A stretch of DNA of 34,960 nt. Source: a virus. Made by a program: the position numbers and the translations under genes. Where the stretch lies: UHGV virus genome UHGV-0140617; one strand, written 5' to 3'. Position 1 is the stretch's first letter, and each line of letters begins with the position of its first letter. The notes under the pieces are model-generated. The model had not been told where the DNA came from, ran no database searches, and was given only the letters and a program-made list of their open reading frames with translations. Shown here piece after piece: positions 1-34,910 of the stretch.

Positions 1-2224
1 CCCAGTTCAGGCGAATCCCCCAGTTGATCGGCGTTGTCGCAAAGCCGACAGGTTTCGGCGGATTTCCCACTTTACCCGTAAGATTTACTTCTGATGATGT
101 CGCCCATACTGATGAAACGTCGCTGGCGTTCACCGCCCTGACACGGACCAGATAGCGACCCGAGTAGATACCCTGCACTTCAAAGCCGAGAGAAGACGTT
201 CGGGGCACACTAATCCAGTTGCCGCTGTCACGCCGCCATTCCGCCTCGTAAGCAACTGCACCCTGAACAGAATCCCAGGCAACGCGCATAGTGGTAATCG
301 CAATGTTCTGGTTAACCGTAGAGTAACTGTCTACGACAATATTTCCTGGGGGAGCCTGAACCCCCGGTGGAATGACACTGACTGGCCGCTCGTCCAGTCT
401 TGCGCCGGTATCAACAGCGGAATAGATATCAGGGTTGTAAGTCGTCCCGGTGACCTCGAAAGTACCGTCGTTGTTGTCCCGCGTTCCCGTAACACGGAAA
501 AGCGCTATAAACAGATCGTCAGAGTCCACACCCCAGTTACATTCAGCCTCCGGCGTTTCGCTGTAGGGTGTGGTGACAGTGACTGTGTTTCCGTTAACGG
601 CCTGGACGGTTCTGGCCTGAGCTGTGCCTGACGGAAGATTCAAAAACAGCCTGTTACCGGCTTTCACATCAGCAGCGCGATCGAGGGTTATGTTGCGGCC
701 GTTAACCGCACTCACCCTGCCGCCGATAGTTCTTCCGGCCAGCTCGTTAGCAGCCACGCCGATCACCTCACCAACAGGGGGGACGTCCATGCCTGTGCTG
801 AAGGTCACCACCTCGCCGATACCGTTGGTAAGCAGCGCCCAGCGCCCCCGCCGGTTTGCCTCTGACTGCCTGGTGCAGCCGATCGCAGTCATTTCGAGCT
901 GACGATAATCGAAGCGCATGGCCAGATCGCTATCGTAAACAGGCTCAGGCGTATCTTTGTAGTGGTTGGCAGGGTCTGACCAGTTCACCAGCGCGGCAGT
1001 GTTTCGGGTGGTTTCACTCGGGTCCGCAAAGGTAAATTTTCCTTCAACAACGCTGGCGTGGTTGTAGATGTGCCACACATCCCGGGGCATATCGGCCAGG
1101 ACATACATCTTATTGTCGCCCCAGTACGTCATGCCGCGAAATATACCCGCCAGATCACGAAGTACGGTCCAGGCGTCATTACGGTCCTGGATATAAACGT
1201 TGCAACGAAAACGAGGCTCCGTCCCGCTGCCGCCCTTGCCGTCTGGTACCAGTTGATCGCAATACTGGGCGATGCGATAAAGTTCCCATTTGTCTATCTG
1301 AGTCGCATCGATTCTTTGACCCAGCCCGAAGCGCTCGTTCAGGATGATGTCGTAATATATCCAGGCTGGATTATCCGTCCATGCCCATTTAAATACGCCC
1401 TCCCATGTACCAGAGTAAGTACGGGTTTCAGGATCATACGTGTCAGGTACACGGATGATTCGCCCTTTCGGATTGCACACAACCTGAGGAATGCCATTGG
1501 GGAACTGCTTTGCGTCAAACTCTACATACAGCAGAGCTGTGTTAACGTAGCGAAGTTTGGCGTCAATAATTTCAGTAACGGCCACAACGCGCATGATGTC
1601 CACGACATTCACGCTCGTGGAATCCGGCGTGATTCTGCGAACCCGCAACTGCCATCCAGTCGAGGCTTTTGGAAGATTGACGCGGTGGCTGCGCTCATAA
1701 AGCGACGTGGTTTTGTCATCAACAGCACCGTTAATCACCGTTTCATACGGCCCACCATCGACCGACAGATCGATAGCATACTCAACGCGGGTGCCGACTT
1801 TATCGCCGTTGTTTTTCTGGAGTAAAAGAGTTGGCCATCCCAGGCGAATTCGCAGCGCAGAGAGCTGCGTGTTGGATACCGCGCGAACGTACGGCACGGC
1901 CTGTTTCAGCTCGTATGAAACCTGAATCTCGTTTTCAATGCCGGGGAAGCCCTGAATGTAGTCCTGGTCCTGAGTACCGGAACGGAACTCATATTTTACA
2001 TTATTGAAGTTATAACTTCCGTTGGCGTTCTGAAGGGGCGTATATGAAGATGAGTCACCAAGAAAAATGTTTTTACCATCAAGTCCGCCAGCGAACTCAC
2101 CCTCTCCAAGAGCAATCAGCACCTTTGCCCTCGCAATGGACTGAATGCTGTCCGGTGCTTCCACGGGCGTTCTGGTCTGATTGCTGCCACCTTTACCGCG
2201 GCCTTTGATGATTGTCGTCGTCAT
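1..2224 (-). CDS. J: Host specificity / central tail fiber protein J (partial; N-terminal ~740 aa, C-terminus lies beyond window start)
   Basis: Minus-strand frame open from ATG at 2222-2224 (MTTTIIKGRGKGGSNQ...) to the window edge; motif CDQLVPDGKGGSGTEPRFRCNVY resembles lambda J (CDQSVPDGFGGTEPRITCNAY); sits downstream of I/K/L/M as in lambda. Plus-strand ORFs here are antisense shadows. Confidence 0.85.
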   Translation of the reverse strand, partial: MTTTIIKGRGKGGSNQTRTPVEAPDSIQSIARAKVLIALGEGEFAGGLDGKNIFLGDSSSYTPLQNANGSYNFNNVKYEFRSGTQDQDYIQGFPGIENEIQVSYELKQAVPYVRAVSNTQLSALRIRLGWPTLLLQKNNGDKVGTRVEYAIDLSVDGGPYETVINGAVDDKTTSLYERSHRVNLPKASTGWQLRVRRITPDSTSVNVVDIMRVVAVTEIIDAKLRYVNTALLYVEFDAKQFPNGIPQVVCNPKGRIIRVPDTYDPETRTYSGTWEGVFKWAWTDNPAWIYYDIILNERFGLGQRIDATQIDKWELYRIAQYCDQLVPDGKGGSGTEPRFRCNVYIQDRNDAWTVLRDLAGIFRGMTYWGDNKMYVLADMPRDVWHIYNHASVVEGKFTFADPSETTRNTAALVNWSDPANHYKDTPEPVYDSDLAMRFDYRQLEMTAIGCTRQSEANRRGRWALLTNGIGEVVTFSTGMDVPPVGEVIGVAANELAGRTIGGRVSAVNGRNITLDRAADVKAGNRLFLNLPSGTAQARTVQAVNGNTVTVTTPYSETPEAECNWGVDSDDLFIALFRVTGTRDNNDGTFEVTGTTYNPDIYSAVDTGARLDERPVSVIPPGVQAPPGNIVVDSYSTVNQNIAITTMRVAWDSVQGAVAYEAEWRRDSGNWISVPRTSSLGFEVQGIYSGRYLVRVRAVNASDVSSVWATSSEVNLTGKVGNPPKPVGFATTPINWGIRLNW

Positions 2225-2235
2225 ATCGCGTCCAT

Positions 2236-2258
2236 AAAAAAAGCCACCGTCAGGTGGC
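2236..2258 (-). terminator. Hairpin plus U-tract between I and J (terminator-like on minus strand)
   Basis: Plus-strand A7 run 2236-2242 then gccac(2243-2247)/gtggc(2254-2258) stem; on the minus strand this is a hairpin followed by UUUUUUU. Confidence 0.4.
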
Positions 2259-2277
2259 TTATAGTACGTGGTTTGGT

Positions 2278-2865
2278 TTATTGCTGATCTTCTGCATAAA
2301 TCCCGGCTGAGATAATCGCACCGCCTATTTCCCTCTGTCCGTAAAGCAAAGGAACGGGGTTACCGGATGCCGTAGTATTGACGGGTCCGCCAAACGCATA
2401 GGAAGGCTTATTATCTGGGTCCTGTCGCATCCTCAGACCAGCAACCTGAGGGGAAAGCATTTGCACTACACCACCCACAGCCATAGAACCAGCTGCGGCA
2501 TATAGCGCCATTTGTGTACCTGCTGCCCATCCTATTGGGTTCCACCAGGTAAAAGCCGCAATTGCGGCGGCAGTAACAATTTGAAAGAGGCCAGCCCTTT
2601 TACTGCCGCGTATTACAGGGATAATGCGAAGTTCATCGCCAGGTCCAAGAAGATCAAACTCTTCCTTTCCTATGTTTATTTGGTTTCGGAAGATGACAAA
2701 ATCCAGCCCTTTCGCTCTGGTCTCGCGCAGGTAAGCATCAAAGCCATCAATGGTGTTAGAAAGCGCCCTGAACACTTCGCTGGCAGACGTTAGTGCGCGG
2801 CGATGCGTCCTGCCAAATCGCTGAGCCATTGAGCCGCTGAGTTTGATAACGGTTTTTCTTTCCAT
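2278..2865 (-). CDS. I: Tail assembly protein I
   Basis: 195 aa, hydrophobic Gly/Ala-rich C-terminal half like lambda gpI; 1-nt overlap with K stop; positioned between K and J. Confidence 0.8.
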   Translation of the reverse strand: MERKTVIKLSGSMAQRFGRTHRRALTSASEVFRALSNTIDGFDAYLRETRAKGLDFVIFRNQINIGKEEFDLLGPGDELRIIPVIRGSKRAGLFQIVTAAAIAAFTWWNPIGWAAGTQMALYAAAGSMAVGGVVQMLSPQVAGLRMRQDPDNKPSYAFGGPVNTTASGNPVPLLYGQREIGGAIISAGIYAEDQQ

Positions 2866-3575
2866 TACATCAAATCCTTATAACGCAGAATTTTGATGGT
2901 ACGGTCACGGTAATAACCACCGTAGGGAATACGCTGGCTTAGCTGGCCATACATGTGATGCAGTAGCATGTTGCCATCAAGCAAAATCCCGGCATGGTTC
3001 GGGACGGTGGACTGTACCTGCATGATAACCATGTCACCGGGCTGAGCTGGACCGTCGTACTCACGGAAACCGCATTCCTGCCAGTTGTCCATATAGAGGT
3101 TTTCACCCTGCTCCCACCAGTGCCGATCTACGCTGTAGTTGGGCAGTTCAATGCCGTGTTCGATGCGGAAATAGTCCATAATGAGAGACCAGCAGTCTGC
3201 ATGCCCGAGTACAAACTGGCGCCCTGTGAGGGGACGGTCTCCGCGAGGCATGACGGTGCGAATGTCGCCCTCAGGCCACGATGCAATAATCCAGGGCAGT
3301 TCCGTGGCATCACACATCAGCATGTCGAGTTCACTCGGCTGGGTTGTTGCCCCGTCGCCGGGGTGACTGTGGACGATCGCCACCACAGTTCCCTGCTCTT
3401 CGGCGGCCGCATAATCCTCAGGATTGAGTTCAAATTGCTCAGTCGGCGACTCAGCATTATTTTTGCAGGGGATGTATTTCTCCACCCGCCCCTTCTGAAT
3501 AACCACGCCACAGCACTCCTCGGGGAAGGATGCGGCGGCATGCGCCAGAATGGCGCTAACTGTTTTGTCGCGCAT
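2865..3575 (-). CDS. K: Tail assembly protein K (JAB/MPN plus NlpC/P60-like)
   Basis: 236 aa; HSHP metal-binding motif (AIVHSHPGD) and Cys/His peptidase-like C-terminal region typical of lambda gpK; gene order L-K-I. Confidence 0.8.
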   Translation of the reverse strand: MRDKTVSAILAHAAASFPEECCGVVIQKGRVEKYIPCKNNAESPTEQFELNPEDYAAAEEQGTVVAIVHSHPGDGATTQPSELDMLMCDATELPWIIASWPEGDIRTVMPRGDRPLTGRQFVLGHADCWSLIMDYFRIEHGIELPNYSVDRHWWEQGENLYMDNWQECGFREYDGPAQPGDMVIMQVQSTVPNHAGILLDGNMLLHHMYGQLSQRIPYGGYYRDRTIKILRYKDLM

Positions 3576-3577
3576 GA

Positions 3578-4336
3578 TTATCCTCTCAGAAGTGAAGCGC
3601 CGGGGAACCCGCCATAATCCAGCTGTTCATTCTCTCCGAAGCGAGGTTTACAGCCCGTTGACAGCAATCCGGAGCAAACATCCTGTGAAGGATCGTCCAC
3701 CCGATTGCCGTCTTTATCGAACCAGCCGTTTTGCCCGGCGTAGGTGCAGCCGTTCCCGGTTTTGTACCAGCCACGCATGCACCACGTGCACATTGGCTGA
3801 ATTTGCCGGGTCGGAATGAGTTGCCCGCGCAGATCGGCTGGACTGGAAAGCTCAAATTCTACAGTTTCATCGTCTGATCCTGATTTACGGTCGATGTAAT
3901 AAACCTGTTTGCGCTCCTCGTTGGGATTCGCAGTCTGGTTCCCATCAGGGAAGTTTCTGGCGTCCAGATAGTGTGCGAAGGTGTCATGGATGATCACCTT
4001 TGCTTTAGCCATCCCCTGAAATCTTCGGCACAGCGCGCCAATCGTGCCGCTGATGTTTGCAACGGTGAGAGACGGTCGTGAACACTGGCCGTCACTGCTG
4101 ACAGATATGCCGGTCAGTTCATACGGCCACGCGCCATACTCCTGCCCCTGCCACCACACCGACTTCGGCTCAAGTTTTGACTCGTCGCCGCCTGCGGCGA
4201 TGATTTCCGCCTCGGTATGCGGGATTGTCTCGTTGTGAAAGCGAAGAATACCTGCACCGAAAGCTGAGCCGTCCACCTCGATCAGGCGGACGCGCTTACC
4301 CGGCTCCAGTTTCTGGACATCAGATGAAATACTCAT
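3578..4336 (-). CDS. L: Minor tail protein L
   Basis: Start taken at internal ATG 4334-4336 (MSISSDVQKLEPGKRVRLIEVDG...), giving lambda gpL-like length; C-terminal Cys cluster (CTWCMRGW...C...C) as in lambda L; ATGA overlap with M stop. Confidence 0.8.
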   Translation of the reverse strand: MSISSDVQKLEPGKRVRLIEVDGSAFGAGILRFHNETIPHTEAEIIAAGGDESKLEPKSVWWQGQEYGAWPYELTGISVSSDGQCSRPSLTVANISGTIGALCRRFQGMAKAKVIIHDTFAHYLDARNFPDGNQTANPNEERKQVYYIDRKSGSDDETVEFELSSPADLRGQLIPTRQIQPMCTWCMRGWYKTGNGCTYAGQNGWFDKDGNRVDDPSQDVCSGLLSTGCKPRFGENEQLDYGGFPGASLLRG

Positions 4337-26498: not shown

Positions 26499-27379
26499 GC
26501 TGCACCCGCTAACTCAGTATCGTGAGTAAACTTGCCATCCCAGCGCTTCTTCATCGGAAGATGCCCCTTGAGATAGTGTCGATAAATCCATACCGCGCCT
26601 TTGCGCAGCAGGATTGGCTTGAAGGTGTCGCGCATCTCACCGTCGTCCTGTTCCACCTGCCCTGGCCGTTCGGTGAGGTATTGATCACGCGCATAGTGAT
26701 GAACCCGCCACAGTGGACGCCTGGCCTTTGGCTGGTCGTCGTAAAGCCAGTTATGATCAGCCAGAAACGCGTTAACCTGCTGGACGTTGACGCCGTTCAG
26801 TTGCTTACAGAACTGGCAAGGGGACATTCCCGGTTGGAACAGGTTTTCCAGGTGTTCGATGTACTGCGCCTGACGGTGAACGTATCCGATAGCTTTGTTC
26901 TTCGCTTCATACTCGTCCGCCCATGCGCGCGCAGCAGCCGCCGGGTCGTTGAAGTCTGGCAGACTGCTGCTGACTGGCGCCAGCTTGCCGGTACGGAAGT
27001 CGAGAAAGGTCTGGTTAACCTGCAAACGAAACGACGGTGAGATCCACCCGGCGTACTCGATGGCCAGCAGTTCGTGGGCGAACGTGCCCGGCGCAATGCC
27101 GCCATTCACGGTGTCGATTGGTTTTTGAGCAGAGTGTAAATTTACATTCTGGTTCTCTTTCAATAAATTACGCTTAAGCTCTTCAATGAGTTCTTTCGTG
27201 CTTTTTCGGCGTAACCATTGGCTCGGAGATTTATCCTCACCCGCTCCGCTCGCCTTGTGCAAAGCGTTCAGGTTAAATCGCCCGGCGGCATCCGTCGTGA
27301 TTTCAACGCCTGCAATAACAGGCAGGCTTTCAACATTAATGCTTGAAACGTTCGGATGTTTATTGGTATTGTTTTTCAT
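26495..27379 (-). CDS. KilA-N domain protein with antirepressor (ANT/KilAC)-like C-terminus
   Basis: About 294 aa from ATG 27377-27379 (MKNNTNKH...); KilA-N hallmark FNLNALHKASGAGEDKSPSQWLR. Confidence 0.7.
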   Translation of the reverse strand: MKNNTNKHPNVSSINVESLPVIAGVEITTDAAGRFNLNALHKASGAGEDKSPSQWLRRKSTKELIEELKRNLLKENQNVNLHSAQKPIDTVNGGIAPGTFAHELLAIEYAGWISPSFRLQVNQTFLDFRTGKLAPVSSSLPDFNDPAAAARAWADEYEAKNKAIGYVHRQAQYIEHLENLFQPGMSPCQFCKQLNGVNVQQVNAFLADHNWLYDDQPKARRPLWRVHHYARDQYLTERPGQVEQDDGEMRDTFKPILLRKGAVWIYRHYLKGHLPMKKRWDGKFTHDTELAGAA

Positions 27380-27398
27380 GGAATGATTCCTCGCAGTA

Positions 27399-27683
27399 TT
27401 ATTCCGCAGATATGCAAACGAAGTCAGAACAGGCCGGGTTGGCGCTCTCCGTTCCTTCCCGGCCTTTTCTTTGCCTTGCGTTCTGCTGTTGTCGTCTGCC
27501 CAATAGCCCACTGTCGCGCACGGAAAAGACAATCAGCGAACATGCTTCCCTTCCGGCTGGACTGAGAGCATCGCCGGTAATAATCAACACCATGCTCTGC
27601 CCCCCCCTGGCGACTTCTGCCGGAAAACCTTCGCCAGCCAGCGCCTCGGTGATGTGCTTTTTGATGAATTCTTCCGGTGACAT
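27399..27683 (-). CDS. Hypothetical protein in cII position (reading frame uncertain because of G8 tract)
   Basis: ATG 27681-27683 lies 1 nt after the cro stop (coupled); contains a G8 homopolymer (plus C8 at 27600-27607); downstream sequence is low complexity. Confidence 0.35.
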   Translation of the reverse strand: MSPEEFIKKHITEALAGEGFPAEVARGGQSMVLIITGDALSPAGREACSLIVFSVRDSGLLGRRQQQNARQRKGREGTESANPACSDFVCISAE

Positions 27684-27684
27684 G

Positions 27685-27900
27685 TCAAGCCTTTACTGAT
27701 GGGTGAGGGAAAATTTCTTCGATAAACACCTTCCGGTCTGACGTACTCAAAGCGGATGCGATGAGATGGCATGTCTCAATATCTGGAACTCTCCGACCAG
27801 ATTCGTAGTGACAAATGGAGCTTTGTGTATGGCCTATGCTCTTCGCCAGCTCGCATTGAGTTAACCCACTGGCAATACGCATATTTTTAAGATTACTCAT
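27685..27900 (-). CDS. cro: Cro-like HTH regulator
   Basis: 71 aa XRE-type helix-turn-helix (ASGLTQCELAKSIGHTQSSICHYESGRR); divergent from the repressor gene across an operator region. Confidence 0.75.
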   Translation of the reverse strand: MSNLKNMRIASGLTQCELAKSIGHTQSSICHYESGRRVPDIETCHLIASALSTSDRKVFIEEIFPHPSVKA

Positions 27901-27924
27901 TTTAATCCCCCGTTACTCAAGGAG

Positions 27925-28005
27925 ATATTACACATTGTATTTGAAATCAGCAAGAAAATATTACATTATGTGCATTGAAACTTTATCACATACTGTAATA
28001 TTATG
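27925..28005. promoter_or_regulatory. Immunity operator/promoter region (OR-like) with divergent promoters
   Basis: ATATTACA at 27925-27932 and 27958-27965, inverted TGTAATAT at 27994-28001; minus-strand promoter TTGCTG-N17-TAATAT (plus 27948-27953 / 27925-27930) for cro; plus-strand TTGAAA (27975-27980) and TATTAT/TAATAT near 27996-28004 for cI. Confidence 0.55.
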
Positions 28006-28010
28006 AGCCT

Positions 28011-28670
28011 ATGAAAACAGAATGGTATGAACTGGCTAAAGCCAGAATGTCTGAAGTGGGGGTTACGCAGGCCCAACTTTCAGAGGAATTGGGTGTTACA
28101 CAAGGTGCTTTGAGCCACTGGCTTAACGGCAGGAGATCGGCTTCGCTTGCTGAAATAGGTTCGATTTTTCGAATCCTTGGCATTGTTGGTGCAACCCTCA
28201 ACATAGATGGTTCATTCACCATCGGACCAGAGCAATTCTCGGCACCTCCTAAACCTCATTATGAATATCCTGTTTTCTCTCACGTTCAGGCAGGTATGTT
28301 TTCTCCAGAGTTCAGAACCTTTACAGAACGCGATGCAGAAGGCTGGGTCAGTACAACCAAAAAAGCCAGTGAACATGCATTCTGGCTTGAGGTTGATGGA
28401 CACTCCATGACAGCCCCAACCGGCTCAAGACCAAGCTTCCCAGCCGGAATGCTCATTCTTGTTGACCCTGAAGAACCAGTTGATCCTGGAGATTTCTGTA
28501 TCGCCAGACTTGGCGGGGATGAATTCACTTTTAAGAAATTGATTAAAGATAGTGGACAGGTCTTTCTTCAGCCGTTAAACCCACAGTTTCCAATGATACC
28601 CTGCAACGAGCATTGCAGAGTCGTTGGCAAGGTGGTCGCATCACAATGGCCTGAAGAGACATTCGGATAA
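28011..28670 (+). CDS. cI: CI-like repressor (HTH plus S24 LexA-like peptidase domain)
   Basis: 219 aa; N-terminal HTH ([23 protein letters not shown]), Ala-Gly cleavage site (VQAGMF), catalytic Ser (VDGHSMT) and Lys (FKKL); no SD upstream, consistent with a leaderless transcript. Confidence 0.85.
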
Positions 28671-28692
28671 AACATTCTGTAAAATACTCACT

Positions 28693-28716
28693 CCCGGCTT
28701 ATGCCGGGATTTTTTT
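28693..28716 (+). terminator. Intrinsic terminator after cI
   Basis: cccggc(28693-28698) ttat gccggg(28703-28708) followed by T-run (atttttttgt). Confidence 0.8.
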
Positions 28717-28798
28717 GTCTGAATATCAATACCACTAATTAAATACACTTTGAAATCAAACGCTTTCAATTAATAATCAAATTTTATTTCATTTTGTA

Positions 28799-28827
28799 TA
28801 GACATAGTCAATTACGTTTTGTAATAT
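28799..28827 (+). promoter_or_regulatory. Putative early-left promoter with overlapping operator
   Basis: TAGACA (28799-28804)-N17-TAATAT (28822-28827); palindrome ATTAC-N5-GTAAT at 28811-28825 containing TGTAATAT, the same 8-mer as in the cI-cro operator region. Confidence 0.45.
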
Positions 28828-28858
28828 CACTTCATCGGCAAATTACGGAGCCAATGAG

Positions 28859-29152
28859 ATGAACATAACCTCCCAACCAAACCCAGCAAGCCAGGAATTT
28901 GATATTCACGCCAAGCTTAGATCAGCTAATTCGCACTGGCCTTATTGCTATGCTGTCCAGCATTTCGAGAAAGAATTTAATTACCAATTTAATACAAGTT
29001 TTGTTGACGAAATGGAGTTCGCTGTTTACGAACGTATCGATAATTATTTCGTTTTGGTTGATTTCTTTAAGTCATACGATGAAGCATGTGATGATGCTAA
29101 AAAAATCATTGATGACCACCCTGATCTTAAAAAAATGTTCCCTGCTATTTAA
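28859..29152 (+). CDS. Hypothetical acidic protein (first gene of early-left operon)
   Basis: 97 aa; SD ACGGAG 9 nt upstream; no recognisable motif. Confidence 0.5.
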   Translation: MNITSQPNPASQEFDIHAKLRSANSHWPYCYAVQHFEKEFNYQFNTSFVDEMEFAVYERIDNYFVLVDFFKSYDEACDDAKKIIDDHPDLKKMFPAI

Positions 29153-29223
29153 TTAAACCATTAATTAACAAAAAACATCATAAATAACACCTTAACCGGT
29201 GGGGAACAACTCACCCTGAGGAA

Positions 29224-29520
29224 ATGCAGATGAATATTACCGTCAAAAGTGAAGTCTTAAATAACAAGAGCCATTCAGTTAATCAGGATGACGACATTCT
29301 TTATATAAACAAGGCACACAAAACAGCAGAGTGCGCCAATAAATACGCGCATGAGCTACGTACAGAGTTTTTCCAGTTACTGATGCCAGCAATCACGCGT
29401 ACAGATGTGAAGGTAGCAGGAAGATTCACCTCGTTACTTAATGAGCTTTGCTTCATGACCCAAATGACCATGGAGAATTCATCCAAGGGGGGGGGCAATA
29501 ATGACGTTTCTGAAAGATAA
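29224..29520 (+). CDS. Hypothetical protein, apparently truncated at a G9 tract
   Basis: 98 aa as sequenced; with 8 G instead of 9 (29487-29495) the frame continues to TAA 29612-29614, overlapping the next ATG (TAATG). Confidence 0.45.
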   Translation: MQMNITVKSEVLNNKSHSVNQDDDILYINKAHKTAECANKYAHELRTEFFQLLMPAITRTDVKVAGRFTSLLNELCFMTQMTMENSSKGGGNNDVSER

Positions 29521-29613
29521 AGCAGCACACAATACTGCAAAACTTTTTGCCTCTTATGGAAATAGTTATCTGCATATTGCAAACCTTTTTCTGCGCAAGG
29601 CTTACGGGCGGTA

Positions 29614-29976
29614 ATGACAATGAAAAACAATACCATTGAAATTTATCGCCGCCGCGTTGCTATTGCGACATTAAACCGAATGAAGCGCAAGACAGGAGGT
29701 TATTGCCTCTCCGTAAATATGCCCGATAACAATATCCAGGTTATCGAGATTAACGAAGAATCAATGATGAAACTTTTGCTGCGCTTCGAAAAACAGGCTC
29801 GGACTGAATTCAACACAGAAGCGGAAACATTTCTTCGCCAGACGTATATGAAAAGCGTCGATATCAATGAACACACCGAATATCTGACCGAAACCGGAAA
29901 GATGATTGTTGACGAGATTTTTGCGGAATTAATTAAACACGCGAAAGAGAAATACGTATGTGGAGGAATTAACTGA
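29614..29976 (+). CDS. Hypothetical protein
   Basis: 120 aa; stop overlaps next ATG (TGATG). Confidence 0.5.
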   Translation: MTMKNNTIEIYRRRVAIATLNRMKRKTGGYCLSVNMPDNNIQVIEINEESMMKLLLRFEKQARTEFNTEAETFLRQTYMKSVDINEHTEYLTETGKMIVDEIFAELIKHAKEKYVCGGIN

Positions 29977-30205
29977 TGGCCTCACAACAAACAATTATTC
30001 ACGGAATGCAGACCCCCCCCCAGTCCTCAACGTGGATCTGCATGTGCTTCCGGATTTCACCGGACGCGTGGTTCTTTACATCGAAAAAGGGCGTGTGACA
30101 TGCGACCGCCGTCTGCTCGACGACGAACATATTTGCGCACTGGACACTTTTATCGAAATGGCTCGCGAAATGGAGCTACGTCTTGAGGAAATATCGAATG
30201 ACTGA
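29976..30205 (+). pseudogene. Hypothetical gene interrupted by frameshift at C9 tract
   Basis: ATG 29976 with SD GGAGG reads MASQQTIIHGMQTPP then shifts frame at C9 (30013-30021); the downstream frame (...VLNVDLHV...EEISND) ends ATGACTGA-coupled to the next gene; 10 C would restore one ORF of about 76 aa. Confidence 0.5.
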
Positions 30206-30620
30206 CAACCGTACCGTAAGCGCGATTGACCTCGCGTTACAGAAACACGATACGCCAGTTGGCCCTTTGTTCGTGGCAGTACGACACGGGCGCACAAAAA
30301 AATGTTTCACCCTCAACACTGCAATCCGTTATCTGGCGTTCTTCATGACTACCGAAGCTTTCAGTCGTTCCGGCTTCGAGCAGCGCTACCCGGATGTGCA
30401 GACCGTCTACCCTCTCAATCCAGAACTGAATTGTTGGCAACGAGGAGGCACAACAGTTGAGTACATCGGAGCCCACCAGCGCTGTATTCGACGTCTTCGC
30501 CGCATTCTGGCCATTAAGCGTGACATGCAGAAGTGGTGTGAGAAGTGGGACGCCATGCATGACCGCTTCGTTAAAGAGGTTGACGCACTACAGGCCAGTA
30601 AACCGGAGGGTATTCGATGA
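30198..30620 (+). CDS. Hypothetical protein
   Basis: 140 aa from ATG 30198 (MTDNRTV...); the track ORF starts earlier at TTG. Confidence 0.5.
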   Translation: MTDNRTVSAIDLALQKHDTPVGPLFVAVRHGRTKKCFTLNTAIRYLAFFMTTEAFSRSGFEQRYPDVQTVYPLNPELNCWQRGGTTVEYIGAHQRCIRRLRRILAIKRDMQKWCEKWDAMHDRFVKEVDALQASKPEGIR

Positions 30621-33596: not shown

Positions 33597-34910
33597 ATGG
33601 ATAAAATCACATATCCAACAGGCGTCGAAAACCACGGTGGCAGTCTGCGCATCTGGTTTAATTTTAAAGGTAAGCGCGTCAGGGAAAACCTCGGTGTCCC
33701 TGACACCGCTAAGAACAGGAAGATCGCCGGGGAACTGCGGGTGTCGGTATGCTTTGCCATCCGCACGGGAAGCTTTGATTATGCTGAACGGTTTCCAGAT
33801 TCACCTAACCTTAAAATTTTTGGGTTGGGCAAGAAAGAAATCACAGTGAAAGAACTCGAAGAGAAGTGGCTGGATCTGAAAAAGATGGAAATCAGCGCGA
33901 ACGCGCACAAACGGTACGAGTCGGTCGTGGCAGTTGTTGTACCGCTGATCGGGGCTACCCGACTAGTGACAGCGATTGAGAAAGAAGAGTTGCTGTACAT
34001 CAGGAAAGAGCTTTTGATGGGTTATCAGTGCGCGGCAAAGGGCAGGATCCCTGTTAAGGGCCGGAGCGCGGTCACCGTCAATTACTACATGACGACTATC
34101 GCCGGAATGTTCCAGTTCGCCGCCGATAATGGGTACATAAAGGCAAATCCCTTTGATGGAATAAAGCCATTAAAAAGGGCCAGGGTGGAGCCAGATCCGC
34201 TCAGCCGTGATGAATTCATCCGTCTGATAGATGCGTGCCGGCATCAGCAGACGAAAAACATGTGGTCACTGGCGGTGTACACAGGTGTTCGTCACGGAGA
34301 ACTGGTTTCCCTGGCATGGGAAGATATAGACCTTGAAGCGGGTATAATAACAATTCGCCGTAATTATACAAAACTGGGCGAGTTCACACTACCGAAAACG
34401 GACGCCAGTACGGATAGAGTGATACACCTCATTCAGCCAGCCATCGATGCGTTAAGGAATCAGATGGAAATGACCAGACTCGGGCAGCAGTATCACATCA
34501 ACGTGCAATTGCGTGAATATGGTCGAACAACGCAGCACAGCTGTACATTTGTCTTTAACCCTAAGATAGTCCGTCGAAGTAAGGATGTGGGGGTTATCTA
34601 CAAGGTTGATTCGTTTGGTGACTCGTGGGACGCAGGGTTAAAAAAGGCGGGGATCAGGCATCGAAAAGCTTACCAGTCGCGCCACACTTACGCGTGCTGG
34701 TCACTGGCCGCTGGCGCCAATCCAAGCTTTATAGCCAGTCAGATGGGGCACGCTAGTGCGCAAATGGTTTTCAATGTGTACGGCGCATGGATGGCTGACA
34801 GCAGCGCAGAGCAGATCGCAATGCTGAATCAGAAGCTGGCAGATTTTGCCCCATTGATGCCCCATAGCCACGATAACAGTACGGGAGGATTATTAAAATC
34901 AGTAAGTTAA
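33597..34910 (+). CDS. int: Tyrosine integrase (phage integrase family)
   Basis: 437 aa; C-terminal catalytic region with R...HxxR...Y pattern (AYQSRHTYACWSLAAG...GHASAQMVFNVYGAW); terminal gene of the prophage arm. Confidence 0.9.
   Translation: MDKITYPTGVENHGGSLRIWFNFKGKRVRENLGVPDTAKNRKIAGELRVSVCFAIRTGSFDYAERFPDSPNLKIFGLGKKEITVKELEEKWLDLKKMEISANAHKRYESVVAVVVPLIGATRLVTAIEKEELLYIRKELLMGYQCAAKGRIPVKGRSAVTVNYYMTTIAGMFQFAADNGYIKANPFDGIKPLKRARVEPDPLSRDEFIRLIDACRHQQTKNMWSLAVYTGVRHGELVSLAWEDIDLEAGIITIRRNYTKLGEFTLPKTDASTDRVIHLIQPAIDALRNQMEMTRLGQQYHINVQLREYGRTTQHSCTFVFNPKIVRRSKDVGVIYKVDSFGDSWDAGLKKAGIRHRKAYQSRHTYACWSLAAGANPSFIASQMGHASAQMVFNVYGAWMADSSAEQIAMLNQKLADFAPLMPHSHDNSTGGLLKSVS

Follow-up and report, generated by a model that had tools for sequence, protein, structure and literature searches.

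Homopolymeric tracts acting as contingency loci have long been known in Neisseria, Haemophilus, Campylobacter, Helicobacter and Bordetella, and in Campylobacter and Helicobacter there are gene pairs that a poly-G run toggles between a split and a fused form. General descriptions of homopolymeric tracts of the contingency type are given in PMC6321876 and PMC1891110. Contingency loci have also been reported in phages, namely the A-run repeats in agt and rIIA of T2 and T4 (Gomez, Barrick and Waters 2025, preprint, PMC12633550); that preprint cites tracts of 7–11 G in the receptor-binding proteins of Campylobacter Fletchervirus and leaves temperate phages unmentioned. On homopolymer tracts in the early genes of lambdoid or enterobacterial prophages, our literature search found nothing.

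Here we analyse a stretch of viral DNA of 34,960 nt (UHGV virus genome UHGV-0140617, in the following the window), in which a run of nine G lies at positions 29487–29495 of the plus strand, within the Gly codons at the 3′ end of a small early gene, named here gene A, and 5 nt upstream of the ATG of a second one, gene A′. The reading that we favour, with a probability of about 0.75, is that this G9 is a hypermutable tract at the boundary of two separate, translationally linked early genes in a lambdoid prophage that occurs chiefly in Citrobacter, and that the window carries a normal allele of a three-state polymorphism. On sequence grounds, the tract belongs with the known contingency-type homopolymers; its host, a temperate phage of enterobacteria, is unusual, and a damaging truncation is not supported.

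Like the bacterial contingency loci, the A/A′ tract is a pure G/C run of 7–11 nt within coding sequence that differs in length among near-identical strains and alters the product; in fact, its purity, its product-changing position and its polymorphism on near-identical backgrounds all emerge from the sequence comparison. Unlike them, it is hosted by a temperate lambdoid phage of Enterobacteriaceae and is placed at the 3′ extremity of gene A and in the putative ribosome-binding site of A′, where it toggles a stop position or a fusion; gene A itself is not switched off, since the tract is at its extreme 3′ end. The range of 7–11 G is that of Fletchervirus, and the diversification of phage genes by frameshift is shared; however, T2, T4 and Fletchervirus are lytic and have their tracts in anti-defence or receptor genes whose phenotypes have been shown, whereas here the genes are early genes of a prophage and the variation is known from sequence. 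As in coupled phage gene pairs (TAATG or ATGA), A and A′ meet in a TAATG in 25 of 47 relatives, and A′–B and B–C are coupled in the window, but there the tract shifts the A–A′ geometry to a 20-nt overlap. With programmed −1 sites (lambda G/GT, dnaX, IS911 orfAB) the junction has in common a slippery run near the end of the upstream ORF and a joinable downstream ORF; it departs from them in being phase variable, in the lack of a detectable stimulatory structure and in the independence of A′, which has its own start codon.

The prophage region and the poly-G tract

The tract lies in a lambdoid prophage, in the part with the immunity and early-left genes, and exact-sequence matches of the window's proteins are to Citrobacter freundii and its relatives. 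In the immunity region the minus strand carries a KilA-N/Ant-like and a cro-like HTH gene. The next in order is a CI-like repressor (HTH and S24 peptidase, 28011..28670, plus strand), after which come a terminator-like hairpin (28692–28716) and promoter-like sites (28750–28827), candidate drivers of the early-left operon with genes A, A′, B and C. Gene A (29224..29520, plus strand) encodes 98 aa from ATG 29224, or 96 aa from ATG 29230, where gene callers start it, and its last codons hold the G tract. Gene A′ (29501..29614, plus strand) encodes 37 aa (MTFLKDKAAHNTAKLFASYGNSYLHIANLFLRKAYGR) and its stop codon, TAA 29612–29614, overlaps the ATG of gene B (phrog_1737, 29614..29976, plus strand, 120 aa), which has couplings TAATG at 29612–29616 and TGATG at 29974–29978. 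Gene C (phrog_340, 29976..30205, plus strand) is followed by small coupled plus-strand genes, on to xis and int (int at 33597..34910). The same layout, with the repressor, small early genes, xis and int, is shared with Salmonella phage Fels-1 and the prophage of E. coli VREC0864.

In the intergenic region before gene A, at 29188–29206, we observed a small conserved hairpin and then GGGGAW (CACC-TTAACC-GGTG-GGGAA in the window), found in most relatives at the equivalent position before A or A′, with compensatory stem changes across loci (CGCC/GGCG, TGCC/GGCA, CACCA/TGGTG and CAGGAA/TTCCTG). It gave no Rfam match and may be a boxB-like (nut) element or one involved in RNA processing.

Enterobacteriaceae have few long G/C homopolymers, and this phage lineage nonetheless keeps several length-variable ones in its early operons. 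The window is expected to contain 0.03–0.07 runs of at least nine G and 0.11–0.14 of at least nine C, which makes the run more than a product of chance, in agreement with the view of the earlier note that chance is a less likely origin. The G/C runs of at least 8 nt are C8 at 27600–27607, the G9 and a C9 at 30013–30021, all inside 2.4 kb around the immunity region; these three tracts aside, the longest runs in the window are G6 and C5.

The G9 was found in the place that had been claimed for it, and the ORF 29224..29520 ends at TAA 29518–29520, 25 nt past the end of the run. By editing the run in silico, we observed that its length modulo 3 governs both the end point of gene A (29501, 29520 or 29614) and its fusion to A′. 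With G7 or G10 the product has 91 or 92 aa and its terminal TAA overlaps ATG 29501 in a TAATG; with G9 it is the 98-aa gene A product; with G8 or G11 the frame stays open to TAA 29612–29614, overlapping ATG 29614 as had been predicted for eight G, and gives a product of 129 or 130 aa. The corresponding tails are ...GGQ, ...GGGNNDVSER and a Gly linker joined to A′. We propose that the tract doubles as the Gly-rich last codons of gene A and as the probable ribosome-binding site of A′, and that strand slippage in DNA replication alters its length: gene A would then end in TAATG coupling with A′ (G7 or G10), gain an 8-residue tail (NNDVSER after the Gly codons) and stop 20 nt inside A′ (G9), or be joined to A′ by a flexible Gly linker (G8 or G11). 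Each of the three frames would be viable because the tract, at codon 88 or later, lies beyond a conserved core of gene A of ~88 aa, and thus no frame outcome removes conserved gene A sequence. The effects of this particular tract are accordingly mild.

The end of the run is separated from ATG 29501 by the 5-nt spacer CAATA, which is constant in the relatives, the run growing on its 5′ side. The sequence AAGGGGGGGGG ends 5 nt before the A′ ATG, and its anti-Shine-Dalgarno complementarity was judged by eye. From this position and the G-rich complementarity, the G run is most likely the Shine-Dalgarno sequence of A′, given the constant 5-nt spacer and the presence of GAGGTG or GAGAG at the equivalent site in loci without gene A. 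No local RNA structure was detected at the tract (the fold of 29440–29560, 121 nt, has −23.6 kcal/mol, z = +0.39 against shuffles), and Rfam gave nothing above noise in 27200–30400.

Gene A′ and its junction with gene A

To compare the junction with its relatives, 97 related loci were fetched using gene B as anchor, from species-representative genomes of Citrobacter and Trabulsiella, IMG/VR, metagenomes, Fels-1 and E. coli VREC0864; with the window they form a set of 98 sequences. Complete E. coli genomes and a phage collection held few relatives (7 and 5 records), the best being E. coli VREC0864. Homologs of gene A were found by tblastn in 48 of the 98 loci. A survey of proteins gave 39 gene A clusters, of which the named ones are nearly all from Citrobacter, with one Salmonella member, and searches of the Pfam and PHROG families gave no match for gene A. 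The locus of E. coli VREC0864 (NZ_LR536431.1) has an IS5-family transposase inside the 5′ part of its gene A homolog (1873..2853 of the locus), and a C10 run at 853–862, directly past the repressor stop codon.

Gene A′ is more widespread: it is present in 94 of the 98 sequences, and in 46 of those gene A is absent upstream. In Fels-1 and Trabulsiella, A′ comes after an intergenic region and has its own ribosome-binding site of the GAGAG or GAGGTG type. The Fels-1 homolog (2200..2307 of its locus, corresponding to NC_010391.1 4282..4389, minus strand) has 35 aa, MTFIKDQAAFKTAQLFHTSGYNIIAELFLRKAYGR, and is an unannotated ORF between STM0898.5n and STM0898.4n. The full-length copies (n = 91) represent 36 distinct proteins, start with ATG in 87 cases and nearly all end in ...LRKAYGR. 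In its own frame the gene has a pN/pS ratio of 0.13 (37-codon forms) or 0.33 (35-codon forms), compared with 1.2–2.2 in the other two frames, a mark of purifying selection, and its start and stop codons are conserved. Among 1.8 billion representative proteins we found seven stand-alone A′ clusters of 34–38 aa, and the sole fused form is A–A′; no Pfam family was found, and in two close relatives of the window (L098 and L099) gene callers report A′ as a 37-aa gene. By these alignments A′ is an independent conserved protein-coding gene. It had been claimed that G9 truncates gene A; this was not supported, because the ~30 codons that seemed to be lost form a separate gene, with its own ATG and standing alone in 46 loci.

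When the loci without gene A are compared, homology starts at the A′ ribosome-binding site. For the Citrobacter-type loci we considered whether the tract marks a mosaic breakpoint and rejected this, as the breakpoints lie at ~29165–29180 and 30169–30198.

The junction was surveyed in the 47 loci with both A and A′, where it follows the pattern A(3–7)G(7–11)CAATA-ATG. Pure runs of 7–11 G make up 38 of the 47 junctions (G7 in 12 loci, G8 in 10, G9 in 8, G10 in 7 and G11 in 1). Gene A stops at the TAATG in 25 of the 47 loci, 20 nt inside A′ in 10, as in the window, and is fused to A′ in 12; when redundancy is removed, 34 loci remain, with 15, 9 and 10, respectively. These classes show no clear departure from equal thirds, and thus selection is not evident. 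A separate survey of proteins gave a similar picture, with ~14 fused, ~12 mid-length and ~12 short gene A clusters, and a single 90%-identity cluster of C. freundii spans all the classes, with members of 89–91, 95–98 and 127–133 aa. Thus, the fused frame expected for a G8-type tract is found in nature, in about a third of relatives, and homologs with the same stop as the window, which the earlier note had named as evidence against its reading, do occur, alongside fused ones. From the frequency of the three states we infer that all of them are functionally tolerated, bearing in mind that they were counted in prophage genomes, where the early genes are repressed and selection may be weak. An AlphaFold2 model of the fused form, built with 14 homologs, consists of helices and a disordered tract-encoded linker; its pLDDT of 54.7 is too poor for a fold search, and this low-confidence model is compatible with a tolerated fusion.

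In some junctions the tract is interrupted, and this was observed in each of the three states: GGGTGGG with TAATG (L032), GGGGGGTGG with the stop of the window (L004 and L015), and linkers GW, WG or MGG in the fused state (proteins P0003, P0004 and P0006). Such tracts are predicted to be stabilised, or "locked", and no longer to slip easily. More distant homologs of gene A (62% identity) have no tract and stop 2 nt before the ATG of A′, which indicates that separate genes are the older arrangement.

Another way to look at these data is that the native gene encodes the 129-aa A–A′ protein and that G9 is an inactivating +1 frameshift, making the window a pseudogene or a phase-OFF allele. In fact, the fused frame is open at every locus, fused forms account for 12 of the 47 loci and ~14 of the 39 protein clusters, with members of 127–133 aa on ~52 contigs in one cluster, and some of them have interrupted, stabilised tracts. 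However, locked tracts are also found in the non-fused majority (35 of 47 loci; L004, L015 and L032), the distant homologs without a tract stop just before A′, and A′ exists as an independent gene of 34–38 aa, with its own start codon and ribosome-binding site, where gene A is missing. The frameshift, besides, spares the conserved core of gene A and leaves A′ with its ATG and its G-rich putative ribosome-binding site. We consequently regard a native fusion as improbable.

It could also be imagined that the run is a programmed recoding site, at which ribosomal frameshifting or transcriptional slippage produces a fixed share of A–A′ from a non-fused allele. In the G7 TAATG state the heptamer G_GGG_GGG is indeed in perfect phase and the stop of the zero frame comes two codons later, so that a −1 shift there would enter the always open fused frame; the run is also Shine-Dalgarno-like, a kind of sequence that can stimulate frameshifting (PMC4066793). 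On the other hand, a programmed site would hold one phase, whereas the phase of the run relative to gene A varies (25, 10 and 12 loci in the three states), and in the window itself a −1 shift at G9 would lead to a product of only 92 aa, fusion requiring a +1 shift. In E. coli, −1 shifting on GGN heptamers is poorer than on AAN or UUN ones (PMC4066793), and the efficient slippage documented for its RNA polymerase is on runs of A/T (PMC6260861). The variable phase, the 121-nt fold devoid of a downstream stimulatory structure, the poor shifting on GGN and the documentation of polymerase slippage on A/T runs make recoding decidedly unlikely. Nor does the expression of A′ depend on a trans-frame product: 87 of 91 copies start at an ATG of their own, and the gene stands alone in 46 loci.

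Tract variability in the early genes

For the reading of the junction as a hypermutable boundary between two genes, evidence comes from near-identical loci, which with 0–2 differences in their flanks differ by 1–3 G. Two pairs, L003 (G10) and L007 (G8), and L035 (G9) and L036 (G8), have 0 differences in 655 flanking nt, and L005 (G10), L013 (G8) and L019 (G7) have at most 2 differences over the same length. Since the length differs between loci that are otherwise almost the same, indels in the tract outpace substitutions and the tract is hypermutable, with replication slippage as the probable cause of the changes; some of the length differences among public assemblies could be assembly errors. 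The suggestion of the earlier note that the run is a slippage-prone feature is, with 7–11 G in the relatives, borne out.

The poly-G is often preceded by a variable poly-A (A3, A5, A6, A7 and once AAAAAAT, in L003, L007, L010, L011, L012, L025, L026 and L076), which makes the junction a compound A(n)G(m) repeat.

The C9 tract (30013..30021, plus strand) encodes Pro codons, at codons 13–16 of gene C. It is one base short of being in frame, as a companion claim had correctly stated: the ORF from ATG 29976 needs +1 base, and with one more C gene C has 76 aa. The statement that two adjacent early genes are interrupted held in part, gene C being indeed out of frame at its C9 but not adjacent to gene A, from which it is separated by A′ and B. 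In the relatives the tract of gene C ranges from C6 to C13, in frame at T+C6, C9 and C12 and out of frame at C7, C8, C10 and C13. Among the tracts of at least 7 nt, 17 are in frame and 20 are not, and the short or interrupted ones are always intact. In three loci (L011, L013 and L078, at about 3363–3620 of the locus) a C8, which is a −1 frameshift, is accompanied by a compensating frameshift a few codons downstream (...IPPQSSTLNVDL...), and this second change, by restoring the frame, shows the indels of the tract to be real and inherited. We also considered whether the G and C tracts, 520 nt apart, pair with each other in the RNA, and rejected the idea: across 34 unique loci the two lengths show no covariation (Spearman 0.26, p = 0.13; 0.10 when only long tracts are taken).

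The third tract, C8 on the plus strand and G8 in the mRNA sense (27600..27607, minus strand), lies in a small gene 3′ of the cro-like gene (27424..27683, minus strand), which is out of frame in the window and would be in frame with G9. The four closest relatives of the window are also out of frame, with G7, G10, G10 and G10. In L099, the Logan assembly of run ERR3405315, the tract is G9 and in frame, and the intact 86-aa form matches phrog_4439 over its full length. In PHROG, gene B, gene C and the phrog_4439 gene match only families of unknown function, and Pfam has none for B and C.

The same L099 shares 99.75% identity with the window along 3.9 kb and retains G9, with C9 and T+C12 in the other two tracts, so that its gene C is intact, with 84 aa. 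By this comparison the C9 and C8 tracts of the window are true on/off frameshift sites between 99.7%-identical prophages. A further sequence, L098 (ENA contig ERZ27234557 k141_5053), matches the window with 100% identity along 6,291 nt in which C8, G9 and C9 all lie, and may be the window's own source. The exact protein of the G9 allele was found on 18 contigs in two genomic contexts, the distinct ERR3405315 assembly among them.

Long G/C homopolymers are a classic place for consensus indel errors, and the earlier note had raised systematic homopolymer miscalls for the G9. That the window contains systematic undercalls, the true tracts being one base longer (G10, C10 and G9), is very unlikely: lengthening every tract by one base would create the TAATG state and bring the other two genes into frame, an agreement with a naive chance of 1 in 27, but C8, G9 and C9 recur in L098 (with the above caveat on its origin), the exact G9-allele protein lies on contigs of two contexts, L099 among them, where G9 is retained while the other two tracts differ, A/T runs of 7–8 nt in the window break no ORFs, out-of-frame states are equally common across dozens of unrelated assemblies, and the second frameshift of gene C in three loci cannot be a read error.

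Possible significance for temperate phages

The occurrence of three tracts in the early (pL and pR) accessory genes raises the possibility, which we consider somewhat doubtful at present, that A/A′, gene C and the phrog_4439 gene form a set of G/C-tract contingency loci and that their toggling by slippage is a selected form of bet-hedging. If so, slippage would turn single early genes on or off and move A and A′ between split and fused forms, and the progeny of an induced prophage would be heterogeneous in early accessory genes, candidates for host takeover or counter-defence, in a bet-hedging similar to that of the lytic T-even phages, but in temperate hosts and with G/C instead of A tracts. 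Should switching prove both rapid and selected, phage contingency loci would extend from lytic T-even and Campylobacter phages to temperate lambdoid ones, and A, A′, C and the phrog_4439 gene would be conditionally useful accessory functions, possibly in counter-defence. As regards annotation, the G9 state would be neither a pseudogene nor an error to be "corrected", and the conserved 37-aa gene A′, missing from the record of Salmonella phage Fels-1, deserves recognition.

Length-variable tracts are also present elsewhere in these regions. In 594 kb of related early regions we counted 136 G/C runs of at least 7 nt, including other recurrent length-variable sites in different gene modules. In L042–L049 and L088–L091, at about 3360 of the locus, a run of C7–C10 lies in a very short ORF past the stop codon of gene B (ATGACTAAATTA-Cn-TATT...). 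In L027, L042–L048, L083 and L088–L090, at about 2127–2410 of the locus, C8–C10 encodes Pro codons in a 139-aa gene standing in place of gene A before A′.
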